DNA of 64,000 nt from a virus, in IMG/VR virus record IMGVR_UViG_3300015263_000653, positions 25,857-89,856 of that record. One strand, given 5' to 3'. The notes beneath the pieces are model-generated. The model saw nothing but the letters and a program-made list of their open reading frames with translations, was not told the DNA's origin and searched no databases. Made by a program: the position numbers and the translations under genes. This document shows, piece after piece, positions 1 to 7,372 of this stretch (positions within the stretch are counted from its first letter, which is position 1; each line of letters starts with the position of its first letter).

Positions 1-25
1 CCCTCTAACACCCACTTGGAGGACA

Positions 26-184
26 ATGATGGAAGACGGGACAAGAGTGTATGTGCCAAGCGTTGGCAAGAGCGGAACGATGAAGTTCTCAGTGCCCGGC
101 AATGGCACGTTCCGCTGGTATATCGTCGAGTTCGACGACGGCACTGAGGATCGTTTTGTCCTTGAGGATTTGCAGCGGGAGTAA
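26..184 (+). CDS. Small hypothetical cassette protein (52 aa, MMEDGTRVYVPSVGK...LEDLQRE)
   Basis: Translated by hand; GGAGG just upstream; stop TAA is the first triplet of repeat 182. Confidence 0.75.
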   Translation: MMEDGTRVYVPSVGKSGTMKFSVPGNGTFRWYIVEFDDGTEDRFVLEDLQRE

Positions 185-232
185 CACCCGCTTGAGTCCT
201 GTACAACACACAACACCTTTTGGAGATCGCTG

Positions 233-547
233 ATGTTGACAGACGAACAAAAGAAAGAGCGTCGGTTTCTCAGTCACAACATTGAACTGGGACAACGGGG
301 CCGCAAGCGGATGCCGTTCAGCGAAGTCTGTATGCACATGCGGATCGCTGGCAAGTACATGGATTTCGAGTTGCTCAACAAGGAGTATCCCGGAGTCCAG
401 TTGTACGAAGACGGTCGCCCGTTCTCTGGCTCGATCACGACCGGCGAAGCTGGCATCTTCCATGACTCGGAGCGGGGATATTACTACTACCCCCACGAGT
501 ACAACGCCGAGAACATGGACGACGCCGCCGACAACCCGCCCAGTTGA
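233..547 (+). CDS. Hypothetical cassette protein (104 aa)
   Basis: TTTTGGAG RBS; stop TGA begins repeat 545. Confidence 0.85.
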   Translation: MLTDEQKKERRFLSHNIELGQRGRKRMPFSEVCMHMRIAGKYMDFELLNKEYPGVQLYEDGRPFSGSITTGEAGIFHDSERGYYYYPHEYNAENMDDAADNPPS

Positions 548-562
548 CACCCGCTTGAACCT

Positions 563-593
563 CACCTCAGTAACTCAAAGAGTTACTGAGGTG
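563..593. other. Perfect 14-bp hairpin CACCTCAGTAACTC-AAA-GAGTTACTGAGGTG
   Basis: Inverted repeat read directly; sister copy at 5328-5358. Confidence 0.9.
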
Positions 594-626
594 GACAACC
601 CCGAACCCATTTGGAGGAACACCCAC

Positions 627-830
627 TTGAAAGACAGAACAACCCTTGGCCTGATGGCAGCACTGCTGAGCATGGGCGGCATCATCCCGATGCCATCGTC
701 GGAACCTCGTCGCCGTGTGTATCGGTCGCCAGAGGAACGGCGAGACCTGAACGCCGTCAAGGCGGAAAAGAAGCGAAAGCGGAAGATTTCGCAGAAGTCC
801 CGCAAGGCCAATCGACGCAAGGCGGCATAA
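627..830 (+). CDS. Small protein with hydrophobic N-part and very basic C-terminus (67 aa, ends RRKAA)
   Basis: GGAGG then TTG start; stop begins repeat 828; start uncertain. Confidence 0.7.
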   Translation: MKDRTTLGLMAALLSMGGIIPMPSSEPRRRVYRSPEERRDLNAVKAEKKRKRKISQKSRKANRRKAA

Positions 831-880
831 CACCCGCTTGAACAACGTACAACACACAACACTTTCTGAGGAGATCGCTG

Positions 881-1273
881 ATGAGTTTCAAGTTTCGCCA
901 CGTTACCGTCAAGCTCGGCAACATGCGGAAAGAGGCCGAGTTCGTGGTCTGTCCGGTGAGCAATACCGCTCCCCATGAGATCACGATTCAGAGTGACAAG
1001 CGGATTGCCCGTGTCAATCTGGAGACGAAAAAGGTCATCGTGAGCGATGGCAAGGGCGGGCATCCGGGCTTCCACAAGCTGCAAGCGTTCTGTGGAGCGA
1101 AGGAATACGACGCCCCGCAAGACCTGCTCGACCAGTTGTCCGCACTGGAAGAGGATCACGGCCCGATGGAGTCTGGCCCGGTGGTTGTCATGGATGAGAA
1201 CGGCCCGGCCCCCAGCGTCCACGCTCGGCGTGAGACTGTCCCCAGCGGCCCGGTTTCCATCTTCGACCTGTAA
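881..1273 (+). CDS. Hypothetical cassette protein (130 aa)
   Basis: GAGGAG RBS; stop begins repeat 1271. Confidence 0.85.
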   Translation: MSFKFRHVTVKLGNMRKEAEFVVCPVSNTAPHEITIQSDKRIARVNLETKKVIVSDGKGGHPGFHKLQAFCGAKEYDAPQDLLDQLSALEEDHGPMESGPVVVMDENGPAPSVHARRETVPSGPVSIFDL

Positions 1274-1341
1274 CACCCGCTTGGAGACTGTGAGACAGGA
1301 GTGGCCTGTCTCACAGTCAATCCAACTTTTGGAGTGGACCA

Positions 1342-1665
1342 ATGGCGAAAGACAAGCCAAAGATTGAGATCAAGTATGCTGACCGTGTTGTCGGCAGCTA
1401 CACCCTGTACCGCTCAATGCCAAAGGGCGCACGAGTCACCCAATGGGGAACATTCTTCCCCGGTCAAGGCGAGGATGGTTATGGTCGCAAGATCACAACC
1501 GACATCATCTTGATTTTCAATGGCGAGAGCAAGCGGAAATACCGGGTCTATGCGACCTGCTTTTCCAACTGTGCAAGCCACTGGATCACCTATCAGGGGC
1601 AGACGTTGCACCTTGGCACTCACTTTCAGGATGAGATCAAGCCGGAAAGTGAGATCCCGAAGTAA
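1342..1665 (+). CDS. Hypothetical phage protein (107 aa; GYGRKITT...RVYATCFSN)
   Basis: TTTTTGGAG RBS after a 14-bp hairpin; stop begins repeat 1663. Confidence 0.85.
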   Translation: MAKDKPKIEIKYADRVVGSYTLYRSMPKGARVTQWGTFFPGQGEDGYGRKITTDIILIFNGESKRKYRVYATCFSNCASHWITYQGQTLHLGTHFQDEIKPESEIPK

Positions 1666-1717
1666 CACCCGCTTGGAAGGTGTCAGCAATGGGGCTGACA
1701 CCTTTCTGGAGAACACA

Positions 1718-2050
1718 ATGCACCAACTCGTTATCGCCCATCACCCGCAGGACGTTGACCCTTCCGCCCCGATGGCGGACTCGCCGTTCTGGGCGTGGCT
1801 GGAAGAACACCCGCTTTCAGTCTGTCACGTTGCACTGCTCAAGTATCTCGGAGCGGAGAATTATCCACGAGAGATGCGGCGTGGAATGCTCAACGAAACT
1901 GAGCACATGTGCTACAAGCACATCCATGCTCACTTTTGGTGGACTCGGTTGCGGCAGCCGAAACCGGTGGTTGAGAAGACCCCGGAGCCGATCACGCCCC
2001 CGGAGTTGATTTCAGTCATCAGCTTCGATGGCATCAAGCGGCTGGTCTGA
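1718..2050 (+). CDS. Hypothetical cassette protein (110 aa, His-rich)
   Basis: GGAG RBS and ATG at 1718; stop TGA begins repeat 2048. Confidence 0.8.
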   Translation: MHQLVIAHHPQDVDPSAPMADSPFWAWLEEHPLSVCHVALLKYLGAENYPREMRRGMLNETEHMCYKHIHAHFWWTRLRQPKPVVEKTPEPITPPELISVISFDGIKRLV

Positions 2051-2101
2051 CACCCGCTTGGAGAGTGTACAACACACAACACACTTTTGGAGATCGCCAT
2101 C

Positions 2102-2434
2102 ATGGCACGTTGCGAAGACTTCCCCTGCTGTGGGCATGAACCCGGATGCTGCCCGGACTACGATGAGTCGGGCCGTCAGTTGAACATGGTTTGCGTCTGT
2201 GGGGCAAAGCTGCCCATCGACAGCCGCTACTCGATCTGTGCGAGTTGTATGCGAGACCCGGACGACCCCGATTTCGACCGGGATTTCGATGACGACTTCG
2301 AGGATGACGAAGAGGATTTCGACGAAGAGGACGACTACGAGCGTCGTCAGGACGAGATTCTGGAGCGTCAGGAACTCGAAGACTTCGAGCAGGCCGACGA
2401 ATACTTCGGTGGCTACGGCGGGGAGGACTGGTAG
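2102..2434 (+). CDS. Cys-rich (putative Zn-binding) protein with highly acidic C-terminal half (110 aa)
   Basis: CEDFPCCGH, CVCG, CASC motifs then D/E tract; stop TAG overlaps repeat 2434. Confidence 0.85.
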   Translation: MARCEDFPCCGHEPGCCPDYDESGRQLNMVCVCGAKLPIDSRYSICASCMRDPDDPDFDRDFDDDFEDDEEDFDEEDDYERRQDEILERQELEDFEQADEYFGGYGGEDW

Positions 2435-2446
2435 GACACCCGCTTG

Positions 2447-2590
2447 GAATACACTGGGGGAGACCGGGTAAAACGCCTCGGTCCCCAACTATCAAACCTA
2501 AAGCGACCCGACAGGCCGCACCCGGTTCTCCCCCTTTGATTTACCTTTTTCGTCACTGGGCGACGGCGAATGTCCAGAACACAACGCCAG
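2447..2590 (+). ncRNA. Non-coding cassette, candidate structured small RNA
   Basis: No RBS-led ORF; GGGGGAGACCGGGT pairs with ACCCGGTTCTCCCCC, followed by a T-rich tract. Confidence 0.5.
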
Positions 2591-2639
2591 TAACACCCGC
2601 TTGGACAGCGGTAACACAACACAACTTTTGGAGTCAGCC

Positions 2640-2819
2640 ATGACACCGGCTCAACGTCAGCAGCGGCAAAACATTCGCAATGCGTATCTTGTGGCATCCA
2701 TCGAAGAGATGGAAGCTGGCAAGGCTCAACAGAACGATTTCGGCAAGAGCGTCCTGCAAGAGATGATCGACGAGTGCAAACAGCACGGCGTTGACAACTA
2801 TGGGAAGACTCCCCTCTAA
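2640..2819 (+). CDS. Small hypothetical cassette protein (59 aa)
   Basis: TTTTGGAG RBS; stop begins repeat 2817. Confidence 0.8.
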   Translation: MTPAQRQQRQNIRNAYLVASIEEMEAGKAQQNDFGKSVLQEMIDECKQHGVDNYGKTPL

Positions 2820-2868
2820 CACCCGCTTGGGGAGTGTACAACACACAACACCTTTTTCGGAGATCGTG

Positions 2869-3372
2869 ATGAAAACCGTCACACGTCAAAGCCAGTGGGG
2901 GACTGGCAACATGGTTGTCGAGATCAGCGATGGTGGGATTGACTACTGCAACCCCGATGCACTGTCCGCAAAGTATCGGGGCGAGTTCGAGGAATTTGCC
3001 GATCCTCGTGAGGCAGTGGAAACCGCTATCACCATCGCTCAACAGTGGCAGGCGGATGCTCCCGATAAGACCATCCTGATTGACCACGGTGGCACCGGTG
3101 GAATGACCATGCCATTCGATGGGATGGAACTGGGAGAGGAAACCTACACCGCTCTGAGGGAGTGGGCAAACAGCCAGTATGAGGAACTGGAGAAATGTTG
3201 CCGCTGTGGCGACATCCTCGGCAAAGAGCGATGGACACACCCGGAACTCTGCGAAGAGGAAAAGTTCTGCTCTGAGAACTGCTGTGACAACGCCTACTGG
3301 GACATGATGAAAGAACTCGAAGAGGAGGAGGAGGAGGAGGACGAGGATGAAGAAGTAGAGGACGACGAGTAA
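2869..3372 (+). CDS. Acidic protein with C-terminal Zn-finger-like motif and poly-E/D tail (167 aa)
   Basis: CCRCG...FCSENCC, EEEEEEEDEDEEVEDDE; stop begins repeat 3370. Confidence 0.85.
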   Translation: MKTVTRQSQWGTGNMVVEISDGGIDYCNPDALSAKYRGEFEEFADPREAVETAITIAQQWQADAPDKTILIDHGGTGGMTMPFDGMELGEETYTALREWANSQYEELEKCCRCGDILGKERWTHPELCEEEKFCSENCCDNAYWDMMKELEEEEEEEDEDEEVEDDE

Positions 3373-3440
3373 CACCCGCTTGGAAGGTGTCAGGCAGGAG
3401 AATGGGCCTGCCTGACACTTTTCACAACTCGGAGAACACC

Positions 3441-3647
3441 ATGCCAAAGGCGCAATCGCAGTACAAGCCTATCGGCCAGTATCGGTTTCCCGCAATGGGC
3501 GGGCCGACTGTGACCTATGGGCAGAAACCCTACTACGGCAGGCGGATGCAGTATTTGCCAGCCGTGAGAACGACAATGCTTCAAGTCCAAGTGATGGTTC
3601 TCGGCTCGTTGATGTGGATCAACGTGAGGCCCGAGGATCTGAAGTAA
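3441..3647 (+). CDS. Small hypothetical cassette protein (68 aa)
   Basis: GGAG RBS after hairpin; stop begins repeat 3645. Confidence 0.75.
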   Translation: MPKAQSQYKPIGQYRFPAMGGPTVTYGQKPYYGRRMQYLPAVRTTMLQVQVMVLGSLMWINVRPEDLK

Positions 3648-3697
3648 CACCCGCTTGGGTGATGTAACATCAGCAACCCCCGTAAGGGAGAAGAACA

Positions 3698-3847
3698 GTG
3701 CATTTCGACAAACGCAAGGCCAAACGTGCCGACAAACGACGCCGAGACAAGGAGATCGAGCGTTGCAAGAGGGAGCACGGGAATCGGGGTGAAAAGAACA
3801 CTCGGAAGCGTCCCCGATTCGACGAGTTTGACAGGGAAGCGGCGTAA
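3698..3847 (+). CDS. Small basic protein (49 aa, ends DREAA)
   Basis: Translated by hand from GTG after AAGGGAG; stop begins repeat 3845. Confidence 0.65.
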   Translation: MHFDKRKAKRADKRRRDKEIERCKREHGNRGEKNTRKRPRFDEFDREAA

Positions 3848-3896
3848 CACCCGCTTGGGGACTGTCAATCAACAATCCAACTTTTGGAATGAAGCC

Positions 3897-4082
3897 ATGA
3901 AGGTCGCCACGCATCGTTACCCCCGGACTGCTCAGGAGTCTCGGGAAGTCATCACCGACGTTGATTTCAGCGTCAAGGCCCGCAAGCGGAAGTTGCCCAA
4001 CTGCTGGGACGACAAGCCACGGGGAGACCACGATCACCGCTCGTGGAAGCGTCATCGCCGCAACCAGTGGAAGGCAGCCTAA
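3897..4082 (+). CDS. Small basic protein (61 aa, ends QWKAA)
   Basis: RYPRT, LPNCWDD, SWKRHRR; stop begins repeat 4080. Confidence 0.8.
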   Translation: MKVATHRYPRTAQESREVITDVDFSVKARKRKLPNCWDDKPRGDHDHRSWKRHRRNQWKAA

Positions 4083-4132
4083 CACCCGCTTGTAGGCTGT
4101 ACAACACACAACACCTTTTCAGGAGTCGAGCG

Positions 4133-4504
4133 ATGAACTTCGCCGTCAACACCAAAGACAGCATCTTGGCAACCTTGCGGGATGCGATTGATTTGCAGGA
4201 TTACATGGTCAAGGCCGACCACATTCTGGATGCCCTGATGACGACGGCAGGCGTCTGGACTGAGTGTGGCTATGCCTACAAGGCGACTGAGATCGCCAAT
4301 ATCATCGGCCAGCGGTTCACCGATGAGATCGGCAATTGCCATCACCACAAGACCCACGCCAAGATCGACACCATGCGGATCAAGGCGTACACCGTCGCCC
4401 GGTTCTTCTGTGAACAGCAGTACGAGTATCGGGAAGCCCAGCAAGCGGAGATCGACGCCATGTTGGGCATCGAACACAAGACCGATATGGAGCTTGCGAG
4501 CTAA
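4133..4504 (+). CDS. Hypothetical cassette protein (123 aa)
   Basis: AGGAG RBS; stop begins repeat 4502. Confidence 0.85.
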   Translation: MNFAVNTKDSILATLRDAIDLQDYMVKADHILDALMTTAGVWTECGYAYKATEIANIIGQRFTDEIGNCHHHKTHAKIDTMRIKAYTVARFFCEQQYEYREAQQAEIDAMLGIEHKTDMELAS

Positions 4505-4514
4505 CACCCGCTTG

Positions 4515-4585
4515 GAAGGTGTTGAGAGGGTGCTGTCTGGAGGCGACAGCCAAGTGTCACCCAGTCTCAGGTGAAACAGCCCGAT
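4515..4585 (+). ncRNA. Short non-coding cassette with nested stems
   Basis: TGAGA/TCTCA, GGGTG/CACCC and GCTGTC/GACAGC pairings; no ORF. Confidence 0.45.
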
Positions 4586-4616
4586 CAACACCCGCTTGTA
4601 AAGTGTCACCGGTGGC

Positions 4617-4824
4617 AAGGACGACCGGGGAGAACACTGAGACAACCGATTAGCCCACCGCTACCTACTGTCTTTACCGAAACTGCTGTGACAGCCGCCA
4701 GTCTGATGACGGGTTTACCGTACCTTGGCCGAGGCGTTGTCCACTGGAAACGGCGACAGCAAAAGTAGGCAGAGTGGACGGTGTGCGAATCGAGTCTCAG
4801 TGAAGTATCCCCGGTCCTCTCCTT
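4617..4824 (+). ncRNA. ~210-nt rod-like structured RNA cassette (6S-like architecture)
   Basis: Nested pairings AAGGA/TCCTT, GACCGGGGA/TCCCCGGTC, CACTGAGAC/GTCTCAGTG, CGATT/AATCG, CCAC/GTGG, CCTAC/GTAGG, TGCTGT/ACAGCA, GCCG/CGGC, CCAGT/ACTGG. Confidence 0.7.
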
Positions 4825-4873
4825 CAACACCCGCTTGTACAACGTAACAACAACACCTTCTGAGGGCCACAAG

Positions 4874-5014
4874 ATGAATCAGCGTCGGATCTACCAACTC
4901 ATGACGGAGTTGGGCAAGGAACTGGAGTCGTACAATCCGCCCGGCAATGTCAAGTTCAAGGCGGCAATCGCTGGCCTGCGAGCGGCCATCAAGAGTTTGC
5001 GAGTGTTCTTCTAA
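4874..5014 (+). CDS. Small hypothetical cassette protein (46 aa)
   Basis: GAGG RBS; stop begins repeat 5012. Confidence 0.75.
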   Translation: MNQRRIYQLMTELGKELESYNPPGNVKFKAAIAGLRAAIKSLRVFF

Positions 5015-5065
5015 CACCCGCTTGGACAACGTAACAACACAACCCACTTCTCAGGAGTTCACACG

Positions 5066-5299
5066 ATGAACCACAATCCCGGCGTCAACCGCATGAAGAA
5101 CATCGCCCGCAATGGCTTCCTGTCCTCGCTGGTCGCCAAGGCCCACGCCGGGCAGCGGCCCGACATCACCCTCAAGCCGAAGGGCGTCACCTGTGAGGAA
5201 CTGGAGAAGTACCTCAAGGCCAACAACTGCGGCTGGACCAAGCACGCTGGCGGACGGTATGTCATCGGCTCCCTGCGACCGGCCCGCAAGGCAGCGTAA
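5066..5299 (+). CDS. Small basic cassette protein (77 aa, ends ARKAA)
   Basis: AGGAG RBS; stop begins repeat 5297. Confidence 0.8.
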   Translation: MNHNPGVNRMKNIARNGFLSSLVAKAHAGQRPDITLKPKGVTCEELEKYLKANNCGWTKHAGGRYVIGSLRPARKAA

Positions 5300-5309
5300 C
5301 ACCCGCTTG

Positions 5310-5375
5310 GAGAGTGTCAGCCAACAACCCCTCAGTTACTCTTTGAGTAACTGAGGGGGAGCGGCTGGCCGGGAC
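5310..5375 (+). other. Non-coding cassette containing a perfect 14-bp hairpin (5328-5358)
   Basis: CCCCTCAGTTACTC-TTT-GAGTAACTGAGGGG inside an outer GTCAGCC/GGCTGGC stem. Confidence 0.8.
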
Positions 5376-5428
5376 CAACACCCGCTTGGACCGTGTTAAG
5401 ACCACAACACCTTTTTGGAGATCGAGTC

Positions 5429-6001
5429 ATGTTGAAGTTGTTTGTTCTGGAGTGCAGCACCGTCGAGGAACTGGAATCGGCAATGTCCCGCATGGGGCTG
5501 AGCAAGGTCAAGCCCGAACTGGCTGTGCTGGTCACGCCCGGTGGCAACGTCGAGGAGCCGACGCCAACGCCGCCTGCCCCCAAGGCTGACACCCGCTTGG
5601 AAAGTGTTGAGACGGAAACGACTCAACCGCCAGCCCCCAAGGCTGACGCCAAGCCGCCCCGCAAGTCGAAGCGGAAGGGTGGCGGGGGTGGCTTCCGCAA
5701 GGCAGCCCCCAAGACGTTCACCGATTTGTCGAAGCTGGAAGGCATCGGCATCTATCACAAGGCCGATGGCACGCAGAAGGTTGTGGGCATCATCGGACGG
5801 AGCGAAGGCAAGGGCGGCAACGCTGGTCACGAGATTCTGTGGCTCGGCAACGTCGAGCGGAAGGACGGCGAGATTGTGTGCTGGTCCTTCGCCAACGGCG
5901 ACCCGTGGACGCACAACGCCACCCGCTTCCCGGAAACGATCACCGATCTGGCCCCGTACAGCCCGGACTACGCCGAACTGCTGGTCGAGATGGTGGGCTA
6001 A
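5429..6001 (+). CDS. Hypothetical protein (190 aa) with Pro/Lys linker that reads through an internal array repeat
   Basis: TTTTTGGAG RBS; repeat 5587 is translated as ADTRLESV; stop begins repeat 5999. Confidence 0.8.
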   Translation: MLKLFVLECSTVEELESAMSRMGLSKVKPELAVLVTPGGNVEEPTPTPPAPKADTRLESVETETTQPPAPKADAKPPRKSKRKGGGGGFRKAAPKTFTDLSKLEGIGIYHKADGTQKVVGIIGRSEGKGGNAGHEILWLGNVERKDGEIVCWSFANGDPWTHNATRFPETITDLAPYSPDYAELLVEMVG

Positions 6002-6011
6002 CACCCGCTTG

Positions 6012-6099
6012 GAAAGTGTCGAGAGGGGGACGACAACCCCTCTCGCTCTTTCCTCTCTCTCACTCTCAACTGCGAGTGAGTGAGAGGGGAGAGACAGAC
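6012..6099 (+). other. Non-coding cassette with two hairpins
   Basis: CGAGAGGGG/CCCCTCTCG and TCCTCTCTCTCACTC...GAGTGAGTGAGAGGGGA. Confidence 0.6.
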
Positions 6100-6152
6100 T
6101 AACACCCGCTTGTAAGTTGTGAGAGGACACAACACTAACCGAAAGGGATCGA

Positions 6153-6611
6153 ATGCTGCAAGAGTTGAAAGGGATCGTCGAGGGCATGGGCAAGAGCAAA
6201 GCCAAGCCCGAACTGGTCGCTCTGATCGAGCGAGCCGAGACGCAAGGCCAAGCCGCTGATCCGAAGCGATGGGCCTATGCGGGAGTCACCTTGATGGCCG
6301 TGATGAGTGCTGGACTCAACGGCTACGCCAACGCACAGCACGCAACTGTGCCGATGGCAGGGTGGGCGATGGGGATTGCAATCCCCGCCATCGTCCTGAT
6401 CCTCGCCCGTGTGGCAGGGATCAACTGGAAGGCAGGACGCAAGGCGATGGCGAAGGCCGGGGCTGGCGTCGGCATCGGATTGCTTGTCTTGTCAGTGTGG
6501 CACTGTGCTACTAGCATCAGCCTGCTGACTGGCAGCCATGTGCTACTCGCACTGCCGATGGCACTGGCTATTGATGCGGGGCTGGTGTACTGCGAGTGCA
6601 ACACATTGTAA
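6153..6611 (+). CDS. Multi-pass membrane protein (152 aa)
   Basis: About four hydrophobic segments; stop begins last repeat 6609. Confidence 0.85.
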   Translation: MLQELKGIVEGMGKSKAKPELVALIERAETQGQAADPKRWAYAGVTLMAVMSAGLNGYANAQHATVPMAGWAMGIAIPAIVLILARVAGINWKAGRKAMAKAGAGVGIGLLVLSVWHCATSISLLTGSHVLLALPMALAIDAGLVYCECNTL

Positions 6612-6869
6612 CACCCGCTTGTATTATGTAAGAGGGACACATGACTCACTCGCTGAATCGCAGCGAGTGAGTGTGTTGCAAAAATTGTAATTGAGAAACT
6701 CTCAATTTTTTTTGTGCCATGTGGCCCATGGGGGAGGCACCCCCGCCGCTATGTCACCCCCCTCTCTTATATTAACAAGAAGAAATTTTTCAGACGCCTG
6801 CGCAGCAAAAACCGAAACTCCGAAACTTCTTTGGAGTGAGGCTATATCTCAGAAAAGGAGAAGAAAGCG

Positions 6870-7061
6870 ATGTTGCAAAAAATCCGCCGACAGAAAATCG
6901 TCGCACGCATATTGCGAGCGGTAGCCGAAGAAACTCAAGAGCCGTCTCTTCAGCAGATGAAAGAGGTGGCAGCCCTCGCCTGCAAGATTGCGGCGAAGGT
7001 CCATCCAGATCCGAAGCATCGGTGCGAGCACTGCGAACGACGGCAGCGTCAGTACGCCTAA
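6870..7061 (+). CDS. Small hypothetical protein (63 aa)
   Basis: AGGAG RBS; converges on the minus-strand block. Confidence 0.6.
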   Translation: MLQKIRRQKIVARILRAVAEETQEPSLQQMKEVAALACKIAAKVHPDPKHRCEHCERRQRQYA

Positions 7062-7372
7062 GCCGTCTCGACGAGAATCTCGATGATCTCGTCCATCATG
7101 AATTCGAGTTTGTCGCCGCAAGTCCAAGCGGTGGCGACGACGGGATCGTTATTCAGTTCGCCCAAGAGATCCTCTTGCTCACCGACGCCCTGAACCATGA
7201 CCCACATGTATTCTCGGCGATCTCTGGCGGCAAGAAACGCCAGCTTCACAAAAGCCCCGATCAAGTCTTCGGGCTTTAGATTGTGCTCTGCGATCAACCT
7301 CTGCGTTGTGGCCTTCCGTTCCTCGTTACAGCCTTCGCAGACGTGGAAGATGTTGGCAATTGGCTCCGTCAT
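7058..7372 (-). CDS. DUF2314/YegJ-like protein
   Basis: EYMWV...GELNNDP...GD..F...I motif pattern. Confidence 0.6.
   Translation of the reverse strand: MTEPIANIFHVCEGCNEERKATTQRLIAEHNLKPEDLIGAFVKLAFLAARDRREYMWVMVQGVGEQEDLLGELNNDPVVATAWTCGDKLEFMMDEIIEILVETA

Follow-up and report, generated by a model that had tools for sequence, protein, structure and literature searches.

Background

In integron cassette arrays the cassettes carry attC sites, and stop codons often lie within the RYYYAAC inverse core. The stoperators of cluster A mycobacteriophages are 13-bp asymmetric sites bound by a repressor (gp71 in L5), and about 25 to 35 of them are distributed genome-wide in temperate phages with a known repressor. 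The intergenic repeats of the haloviruses HF1 and HF2, and 'putative mobile promoters', place a short conserved block before many unrelated genes; to our knowledge overlap of either with stop codons has not been reported. In the hyperplastic regions of T4-like phages, PeSL modules extend from the upstream stop codon through a promoter and stem-loop to the Shine-Dalgarno (SD) sequence and start codon of the next gene, and mediate shuffling (Arbiol et al. 2010, PMC2839356; Comeau et al. 2014, PMC4122927).

A reiterated word between small phage genes

The window analyzed here is a 64,000-nt stretch of an 89.9-kb phage contig (G000), which CheckV places at approximately 18% of a genome. The window contains 26 copies of the 11-mer core ACACCCGCTTG with at most one mismatch, all on the + strand and spanning positions 8 to 6621. 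Approximately 0.94 matches are expected by chance, and none of 100 shuffled sequences contained at least 26 copies. Core positions are numbered 0 to 10 with the first A as position 0, and the overlapping triplet occupies -2 to 0. The array extends upstream of the window. On the whole contig there are 104 copies on one strand between contig positions 743 and 32467 (32.5 kb) and none in the remainder of the 89.9-kb fragment. The 11-letter word lies between neighbors among about 100 small genes, and a Pfam match was found for one of 75 array ORFs. The first triplets of the 104 copies are TAA (76), TGA (9), CAA (8), GAA (5), AAA (4) and GGA (2).

The initial annotation had reported that 16 ORFs use the first triplet of the repeat (TAA or TGA) as their stop and that a 17th overlaps it by one base. 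Both observations hold in the window; the 17th ORF ends in a TAG whose final G occupies position -2 in the 2436 copy. Likewise, the three CAA-type copies (position 0 at 4588, 4827 and 5378) do all follow units that are non-coding and contain no SD-led ORF. However, the T at -2 is retained at 8, 2593 and 6102 despite a non-coding unit upstream, and further copies with another base at -2 are found at 619 (GAA, behind a hairpin unit), 1807 (GAA, within an ORF) and 2436. The copy at 5589 lies within a 190-aa ORF in a different frame. The features of the window are as follows.

6–18, +, repeat copy TAACACCCACTTG, one mismatch; behind a 99-nt non-coding unit; T kept, not a stop
182–194, +, repeat copy; TAA is the stop of ORF 26–184 (52 aa)
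545–557, +, repeat copy; TGA is the stop of ORF 233–547 (104 aa)
617–629, +, repeat copy GAACACCCACTTG, one mismatch; behind a 61-nt hairpin-only unit; -2 not T
828–840, +, repeat copy; TAA is the stop of ORF 627–830
1271–1283, +, repeat copy; TAA is the stop of ORF 881–1273 (130 aa)
1663–1675, +, repeat copy; TAA is the stop of ORF 1342–1665 (107 aa)
1805–1817, +, degenerate copy GAACACCCGCTTT within ORF 1718–2050; no junction
2048–2060, +, repeat copy; TGA is the stop of ORF 1718–2050 (110 aa)
2434–2446, +, repeat copy GGACACCCGCTTG; the TAG stop (2432–2434) of ORF 2102–2434 overlaps position -2
2591–2603, +, repeat copy with TAA; behind a 146-nt non-coding unit; stop unused
2817–2829, +, repeat copy; TAA is the stop of ORF 2640–2819 (59 aa)
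3370–3382, +, repeat copy; TAA is the stop of ORF 2866–3372 (168 aa)
3645–3657, +, repeat copy; TAA is the stop of ORF 3441–3647 (68 aa)
3845–3857, +, repeat copy; TAA is the stop of ORF 3698–3847 (49 aa)
4080–4092, +, repeat copy; TAA is the stop of ORF 3897–4082 (61 aa)
4502–4514, +, repeat copy; TAA is the stop of ORF 4133–4504 (123 aa)
4586–4598, +, CAA-type repeat copy; behind a 71-nt non-coding unit
4599–4824, +, non-coding cassette with a predicted long-rod fold; MFE -100.3 kcal/mol, z -4.95; closing helix stops 2 nt short of the next repeat
4825–4837, +, CAA-type repeat copy; behind a 226-nt RNA-only unit
5012–5024, +, repeat copy; TAA is the stop of ORF 4874–5014 (46 aa)
5297–5309, +, repeat copy; TAA is the stop of ORF 5066–5299 (77 aa)
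5376–5388, +, CAA-type repeat copy; behind a 66-nt hairpin-only unit
5587–5599, +, exact copy TGACACCCGCTTG within ORF 5429–6001; read through in the stop-free frame of the core
5999–6011, +, repeat copy; TAA is the stop of ORF 5429–6001 (190 aa)
6100–6112, +, repeat copy with TAA; behind an 88-nt hairpin unit; no SD-led ORF uses the stop
6609–6621, +, last repeat copy; TAA is the stop of ORF 6153–6611 (152 aa); no same-strand gene follows within the unit
6622–6713, +, terminal non-coding unit; hairpin 6643–6671, second repeat CAAAAATTGTA at 6679–6689, weak hairpin 6691–6705, T8 run

The terminal unit is terminator-like, and was passed over by the terminator scan because its stem contains only two G-C pairs.

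Conservation in related arrays

We identified about 40 related arrays in phages and Planctomycetota genomes, with 375 unique junctions. The core ACACCCGCTTG, proposed in the initial annotation as the functional part of the repeat, is unchanged at all 375 and is directly preceded by a purine. In sequence logos of the 104 copies here and 516 in relatives, positions 0 to 10 are invariant. The flanks differ: position -1 is A in this phage but G (87%) in relatives, and T occupies -2 in 82% of copies here compared with 47% in relatives. Downstream, a pyrimidine at +16 (79–84%) and a purine at +17 (89–97%) are common. Cassettes bearing the core are present in unrelated phage fragments, in metagenome contigs representing over 20 datasets, and in the island of a Planctomycete isolate.

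Stop codons at the junction

ORF ends are tied to the repeat, as had been proposed. On the contig 66 of 76 SD-led ORFs (87%) stop at register 0, that is, in the triplet overlapping the repeat (binomial p = 5.8e-22 against the one-in-three frame expectation). In relatives, frames of at least 40 codons close on or against the core at 200 of 375 junctions, whereas a decoy point placed 60 nt farther upstream gives 8 of 375. However, the base-precise joining originally described is specific to this lineage. The stops of relatives fall in four registers (TGA or TAA at -2, TAG at -3, TAA or TGA at -4, and TGA at +9). Stop density has maxima at -4, -3, -2, +9, +11/12 and +18. Orthologous cassettes keep their C-terminus and change register, as in ..gaaTGAC versus ..gaaTAAGAC and ..cggTGAC versus ..cgaTAGAC. 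At 45 of 375 junctions the ORF traverses the entire core and ends at the TGA at +9, and several ORFs contain the core.

The suggestion that ORFs are captured and trimmed onto the repeat is not supported by cassettes encoding ArdC. Four of the five checked have the next repeat within 60 nt, and their genes end 22 to 55 nt short of it; the fifth (in G001) lacks a repeat over that distance. Trimming or capture is thus not obligatory. Some ArdC genes also have a terminator-like hairpin and T run between their own stop and the repeat. Judged from the related DNA, the overlap of stop and repeat is apparently tight packing against a movable gene-junction signal and not a precise capture mechanism.

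The claim that the T at -2 relaxes to C only after non-coding cassettes survives as a tendency in this phage, where T is present in 9 of 16 copies following non-coding units versus 75 of 87 others (Fisher p 0.0099); even after non-coding units, it is three times above base composition. In relatives the base does not depend on the upstream unit (14/23 versus 169/324, p 0.52), the outcome that the initial annotation had itself set against its rule.

Cassette exchange at the core

Comparison of the arrays shows the core to be the crossover point for cassette exchange. Of 51 left block ends in the homology comparison, 21 lie 1 to 10 nt ahead of a core, and maps of unit families reveal gains, losses, duplications and reordering of single cassettes. 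Loci L160 and L158 differ by a clean indel from motif to motif, and between L165 and L179 one cassette is replaced. As the same core is present at every junction, it is also the site of exchange, deletion and duplication. The recombination proposed initially is borne out insofar as the repeat marks the breakpoints at which cassettes have been acquired, lost, duplicated, relocated or replaced; the capture mechanism attached to it is not supported.

Among described systems, the PeSL modules are similar in several respects. Both are reiterated intergenic modules that extend from the stop of one gene to the SD and start of its downstream neighbor, often with a stem-loop, in early regions rich in ORFans, and in both the indels and replacements among relatives are bounded by modules. 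However, PeSLs have recognizable sigma70 -35 and -10 elements, are AT-rich and are similar over ~100 bp, whereas the word here is a G+C-rich 11-12-mer without a sigma70 consensus. PeSLs number ~50 per 170-kb genome, whereas 32 kb contain 104 copies of the word here; in this array stop and core physically overlap, and one word is common to phages and integrated elements across many environments. The HF1/HF2 repeats and putative mobile promoters likewise place one short block ahead of unrelated genes of viruses or mobile elements, but differ in sequence and hosts.

Candidate function of the core

From its position, the core is most likely an element-specific single-element promoter or a similar expression signal. 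The reading that we favor, with a probability of roughly 0.5, is that each cassette carries a reiterated junction signal, most likely of promoter type, which doubles as the crossover point, while the stops provide packing and backstops. The 11-mer and the preceding purine would form the core of a junction module at the front of every cassette, acting at the DNA level for mobile elements of Planctomycetota. The putative module consists of the core, five variable bases, Y-R-T at +16 to +18, a CA-rich or hairpin leader, GGAG and the start codon.

The genomic context is consistent with such a signal. The core is found at array heads in divergent intergenic regions with no ORF upstream; outward-facing pairs 40 to 90 bp apart occur in four independent locus families (L171/L163/L148, L142, L143 and G003:C124), and in Novipirellula rosea the head copy is behind a divergent gene. 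Of 49 terminator-like hairpins with T runs, 14 are followed by a core at a distance of 0 to 40 nt. Both protein-coding and structured-RNA cassettes are preceded by the core. The array shows no excess of sigma70-type promoters: a scan of 7.4 kb returned 2 promoter-like sites versus 2.1 expected, none at a junction. A second phage has a sigma70_r2 gene within its array.

Other features count against a promoter. In ~10% of units GGAG immediately abuts the 3' end of the core and the ATG follows at +17 to +25, so transcription starting at +17 would deprive these genes of their ribosome site, and many leader hairpins begin at +11 to +13, upstream of the putative start. The core is G+C-rich and lacks -35 and -10 elements at the spacing of the sigma70 family; the gap from its AAC-like start to YGT is only 12 to 14 nt. 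In the two phage fragments searched, G000 (89.9 kb, 18% complete) and G001 (238.9 kb, 46% complete), together 329 kb, we found no RNA polymerase able to recognize such a site, and the sigma70_r2 gene of the second phage was not found in the other loci. The T7-like RNA polymerase family PF00940 had no match in either fragment, and the control genomes were likewise without a match.

Under the promoter-type reading, stop codons would be outside the mechanism of the signal, and small, fast-evolving ORFs would be packed hard against the next core. The stops at the junction cover all three frames (T-R-A at -2; TAG at -3; TGA at +9 or T-R-A at +18; TAA, TAG or TGA at +11), and each frame would thus be closed at the first stop met. 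In this phage, with A at -1 and T almost always at -2, the first backstop would be the TAA at -2 that serves 87% of ORFs. The T would be maintained partly by stop use and partly as a lineage-specific flank of the core, which would account for its partial relaxation after non-coding units here. However, since T stays at 56 to 61% after such units, it may belong to the signal and not serve as a backstop.

It is also conceivable, but rather unlikely, that the core acts in RNA as a processing, 5'-end-defining or protein-binding site of a long polycistronic transcript, with ribosomes that terminate at the overlapping stop masking or exposing it. Both types of cargo are flush with the next core, ORFs through their stops and RNA cassettes through closing helices that end 1 to 2 nt before it; leader hairpins from +11 to +13 and the SD abutting the core in short units both fit an RNA that contains the core, and the array has no canonical promoters. 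However, divergent head copies only 40 bp apart leave scant space for upstream promoters, the core sits behind strong terminator-like hairpins, and the ORFs that read through to +9 indicate that translation across the core is tolerated. Messages cleaved at the stop codon would, moreover, be without 3' protection.

A dedicated site for an integron-like cassette-capture recombinase, whose built-in stop would terminate any captured ORF, appears quite improbable. As in integrons, one-gene cassettes in a single orientation are gained, lost and reordered with breakpoints at the core, ORF stops are frequent in the conserved junction and are on offer in several frames, and one array family, which includes the Novipirellula rosea island, has an Xer-like tyrosine recombinase among its cassettes. 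However, attC sites are imperfect palindromes of 57 to 141 bp with paired R''/R', while the word here is an asymmetric 11-12-mer with at most a 3-bp ACA/TGT complement, and the flanking pairs -1/+19 and -2/+20 show no covariation between lineages. Integrons have attI distinct from attC, whereas head and internal sites are identical here, and the cassettes, carried by phages and other mobile elements, each have their own leader and SD. The stops and terminator-like hairpins retained by ArdC cassettes also argue against capture. No adjacent IntI was found; PF00589 had no match in G000 or G001 (fragments, 18% and 46% complete), and neither tyrosine nor serine recombinases, nor any Y1 transposase, were found in their 329 kb. 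The integron analogy drawn originally is thus not upheld.

Highly unlikely is a stoperator-like, orientation-dependent polymerase block by an element-encoded repressor that silences the whole accessory region together: the word recalls stoperators in being an asymmetric 12-13-mer, in running with transcription in all of its many copies, in lying within minimal intergenic spaces or over stop or start codons, and in its presence in an integrated element of a cultured bacterium, but silencing needs far fewer sites than one for each gene (104 in 32 kb), the sites are confined to the accessory array (contig 743–32467) and missing from the remaining phage sequence, neither a repressor nor an integrase was found in G000 or G001, the two phage fragments, and the position after terminators and before RNA cassettes is left unexplained.

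Implications

In the most far-reaching reading, which we regard as unlikely, a cassette system private to Planctomycete phages and integrative elements would be common to both, in which a 12-nt core is read by an element-specific transcription factor or polymerase together with a recombination activity, self-expressing genes and structured RNAs are traded, and three-frame stops terminate inserted or new ORFs. Single genes and structured RNAs would then pass between very different mobile elements. The array, which packs 104 copies into 32.5 kb, takes the pattern of one signal per gene to a very high density, and offers a route into how large phages assemble and trade libraries of ORFans. For annotation, gene ends in such arrays are predictable from the core by a rule that is lineage-specific; gene ends on the core should not be read as evidence for integron-like capture. 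The cultured Novipirellula rosea JCM 17759 carries an integrated island with 11 copies of the core, whose function can therefore be tested experimentally in this isolate.

A repeated core in the phage array and its relatives

The phage record under study (G000) is a single record of 89,856 bp, estimated by CheckV to be 18% complete, that codes for tail, baseplate, tape-measure and protease genes; the window makes up its right-hand 64 kb. Most genes outside the array remain without a name after comparison with PHROGs. Allowing at most one mismatch, ACACCCGCTTG occurs in 26 copies in the window against a chance expectation of about one, all on the plus strand and all inside 8–6621. The whole contig contains 104 copies of the word between contig positions 743 and 32467, and none elsewhere. 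Only one of the 75 array ORFs matches a Pfam family. An Rfam search of window positions 1–7200 gave no matches, and a literature search found the motif string only in unrelated primer lists.

Positions 0 to 10 of the core are invariant in all copies compared. This phage has A at position -1, where 87% of other copies have G, and T is found at -2 in 82% of copies here and 47% elsewhere. Downstream, a pyrimidine at +16 is followed by a purine at +17 (97% in this phage) and mostly by T at +18. A small hairpin formed from the core was rejected, as pairing is limited to ACA/TGT and the flanks lack covariation.

Another phage fragment (G001; 238.9 kb, 46% complete), which has almost no proteins in common with the first, also contains the exact word. 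There it precedes ordinary-sized genes encoding two AAA+ ATPases, a sigma70_r2 protein, an ArdC-like protein and a PARP/WGR protein. The sigma70 region 2 protein (299 aa; L114:1042–1938, minus strand, corresponding to G001 4484–5380) is a repeat-bounded cassette, and its gene has no homologue among the other fetched loci. A scan of metagenome contigs for two-copy patterns identified 54 loci with 519 copies, a count that includes false positives later removed. Approximately 40 of the loci are genuine arrays, whose copies almost always share one strand. The false positives of the two-copy pattern were tandem repeats in L164, L167, L149, L153, L172–174 and others, and most genome_contigs matches. 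Reverse transcriptase and Prim-Pol/D5-type primase-helicase genes are repeat-bounded or adjacent in some of these arrays (L165:769–2034; L171:2817–5276).

In species genomes the same scan identified matches in Planctomycetota MAGs and in the isolate Novipirellula rosea JCM 17759, so the hosts are likely Planctomycetota; for G000 this assignment is drawn solely from the shared word. The N. rosea copies, eleven in number, lie in a 6-kb island (contig C6, ~99.7–105.9 kb) with genes for ArdC, a RuvB-like ATPase and a Xer-like recombinase, adjoining a type I restriction-modification system, a CBASS-type cyclase gene and a sigma54 enhancer-binding protein. Outside the island there are five copies in 10 Mb, the same level as a reversed-pattern control, and a host promoter or host regulatory word was rejected on this basis. 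The word is a property of mobile elements and not of the host's own regulation.

Stop codons at the repeat

The initial annotation proposed that stop codons are built into the repeat and that ORFs are joined to it with base precision. Its observation is confirmed and extended by our analysis, and its interpretation is partly supported. Of the 104 copies, 76 have TAA as the triplet whose last base is the first A of the word; TGA is found there in 9, CAA in 8, GAA in 5, AAA in 4 and GGA in 2. Sixteen ORFs in the window end on this overlapping triplet, as originally counted, and the ORF at 2102–2434 ends in a TAG (2432–2434) that reaches one base into the repeat as then defined. Across the contig, 66 of 76 ORFs led by a ribosome binding site stop in the register of the overlapping triplet (p 5.8e-22 compared with one frame in three, the expectation for ORFs simply meeting a fixed TAA). 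Among relatives, an open frame of at least 40 codons is closed on or against the core at 200 of 375 unique junctions, compared with eight such closures at a decoy point 60 nt upstream of the core.

Stop registers relative to the core among the 200 closures in relatives
Register -2: TGA, 96 closures
Register -3: TAG, its G shared with the core flank, 22 closures
Register -4: TAA or TGA, then G, 37 closures
Register +9: TGA, from the last TG of the core, 45 closures

The stop-density profile shows additional peaks at +11/+12 and +18, and thus all three frames are usually closed inside the junction. ORF ends are therefore strongly drawn to the core. However, the register differs between orthologous cassettes although their last residues are conserved. 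In addition, five cassettes encoding the known family ArdC were checked. In four of them a repeat follows within 60 nt of the stop, at a distance of 22–55 nt, and in some of these a hairpin and T run lie in the gap; the fifth, in G001, has none in that range. Given these register changes and distances, the stop codon does not belong to the repeat as a fixed element, and genes are not trimmed to fit it.

The T at -2 had further been suggested to relax to C only after non-coding cassettes. The three CAA copies in the window do follow units of 71, 226 and 66 nt, each without a credible ORF. Taking units of up to 125 nt as too short for a protein, T is present in this phage at 9 of 16 copies after short units and 75 of 87 after longer ones (Fisher p 0.0099), and even the former fraction is triple the array's T content (18.7%). 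In relatives, however, the corresponding counts are 14 of 23 and 169 of 324 (p 0.52). Over this phage and its relatives together, the TAA-type arrays covered were G000, G001, part of the N. rosea island and the locus L126. Copies lacking T in this phage are also found inside ORFs and behind ORFs that stop in another register. The relaxation is consequently a local tendency and not a rule.

Exchange of cassettes

Comparison of the arrays shows that the cassette is the unit of change. The left ends of homology blocks between arrays fall in the 10 nt before a core in 21 of 51 cases, and maps of unit families show gain, loss, duplication and reordering of single cassettes. An extra block of cassettes distinguishes locus L158 from L160, inserted precisely core-to-core, and between L165 and L179 an unrelated cassette has been swapped between two conserved cores.

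A 190-aa ORF (window 5429–6001) reads through an exact repeat copy at 5589, and the 40 nt around this copy match the junction at 5996–6034 with 87% identity. The ORF appears to have arisen by fusion of two cassettes into a single gene. A hairpin-only cassette (arms CTGAGTAACTC and GAGTTACTCAG, 4-nt loop) recurs in its own slot at window 558–616 and 5310–5375 and at contig 23890, 24227 and 24700. An unrelated array from a metagenome (L155, ~2200) has a version of it with an altered arm.

The array is a variant of a phage cassette-junction type that is already known. Of the systems described so far, PeSL modules of T4-like phages come closest. According to a published figure legend, such a module begins with the stop codon of the preceding gene, continues with a promoter and stem-loop, and reaches to the ribosome binding site and start of the next gene; it mediates modular shuffling (PMC2839356, PMC4122927). 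In contrast to PeSL, the repeat described here has a different sequence without a sigma70 consensus, occurs at a different density, physically overlaps stops, and is spread over phages and integrated elements. The analogy with integron cassettes drawn initially was not borne out, as a test for attC structure failed and no integrase was found in the G000 or G001 fragments.

Possible function of the core

The core would serve as a signal for expression, most probably as an element of the promoter type. It is found at array heads in divergent intergenic regions, with no co-oriented ORF or transcript upstream, and a further head copy lies behind a divergent gene in the N. rosea island. Outward-facing pairs of cores 40 to 90 bp apart occur in four locus families. 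Cores precede structured-RNA cassettes as well as genes, and of 49 terminator-like sites in the arrays, 14 have a core no more than 40 nt past their end. The pyrimidine/purine pair 6 nt past the core has the geometry of a -10-type element and start site, and sigma70-type promoters show no excess in the array. Against a promoter-type element, the ribosome binding site (GGAG) directly abuts the core in about one tenth of units, leader hairpins often begin at +11 to +13, and no polymerase or factor assignable to the core was found in the two phage fragments or the fetched loci. A role of the core at the RNA level, as a dedicated recombination site, or as a stoperator-like operator is possible but less probable.

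An ECF-type bipartite promoter was rejected as such since the 12 to 14 nt from the AAC-like core start to YGT are too short, and AAC is replaced by GAC in most relatives. A sigma54 promoter was rejected: a sigma54 enhancer-binding protein is divergent to the N. rosea island, but a HEAT/TPR gene takes that place in other loci, and the core lacks GG-N10-GC. Neither 16S rRNA complementarity nor a Chi-like hotspot (the complement contains AAGCGG) would explain why cores sit so strictly at gene boundaries.

A second repeated 11-mer, CAAAAWTTGTA, has 11 copies in 90 kb.

Copies of CAAAAWTTGTA
Window 6679–6689; contig 4811, 9167, 13153 and 19847: plus strand
Six more on the contig: minus strand

In the array it lies behind a G+C-rich hairpin, 2 to 4 nt before GGAG and a start codon, and outside the array it shares its strand with the leftward genes. 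This 11-mer could be a mark of another expression class.
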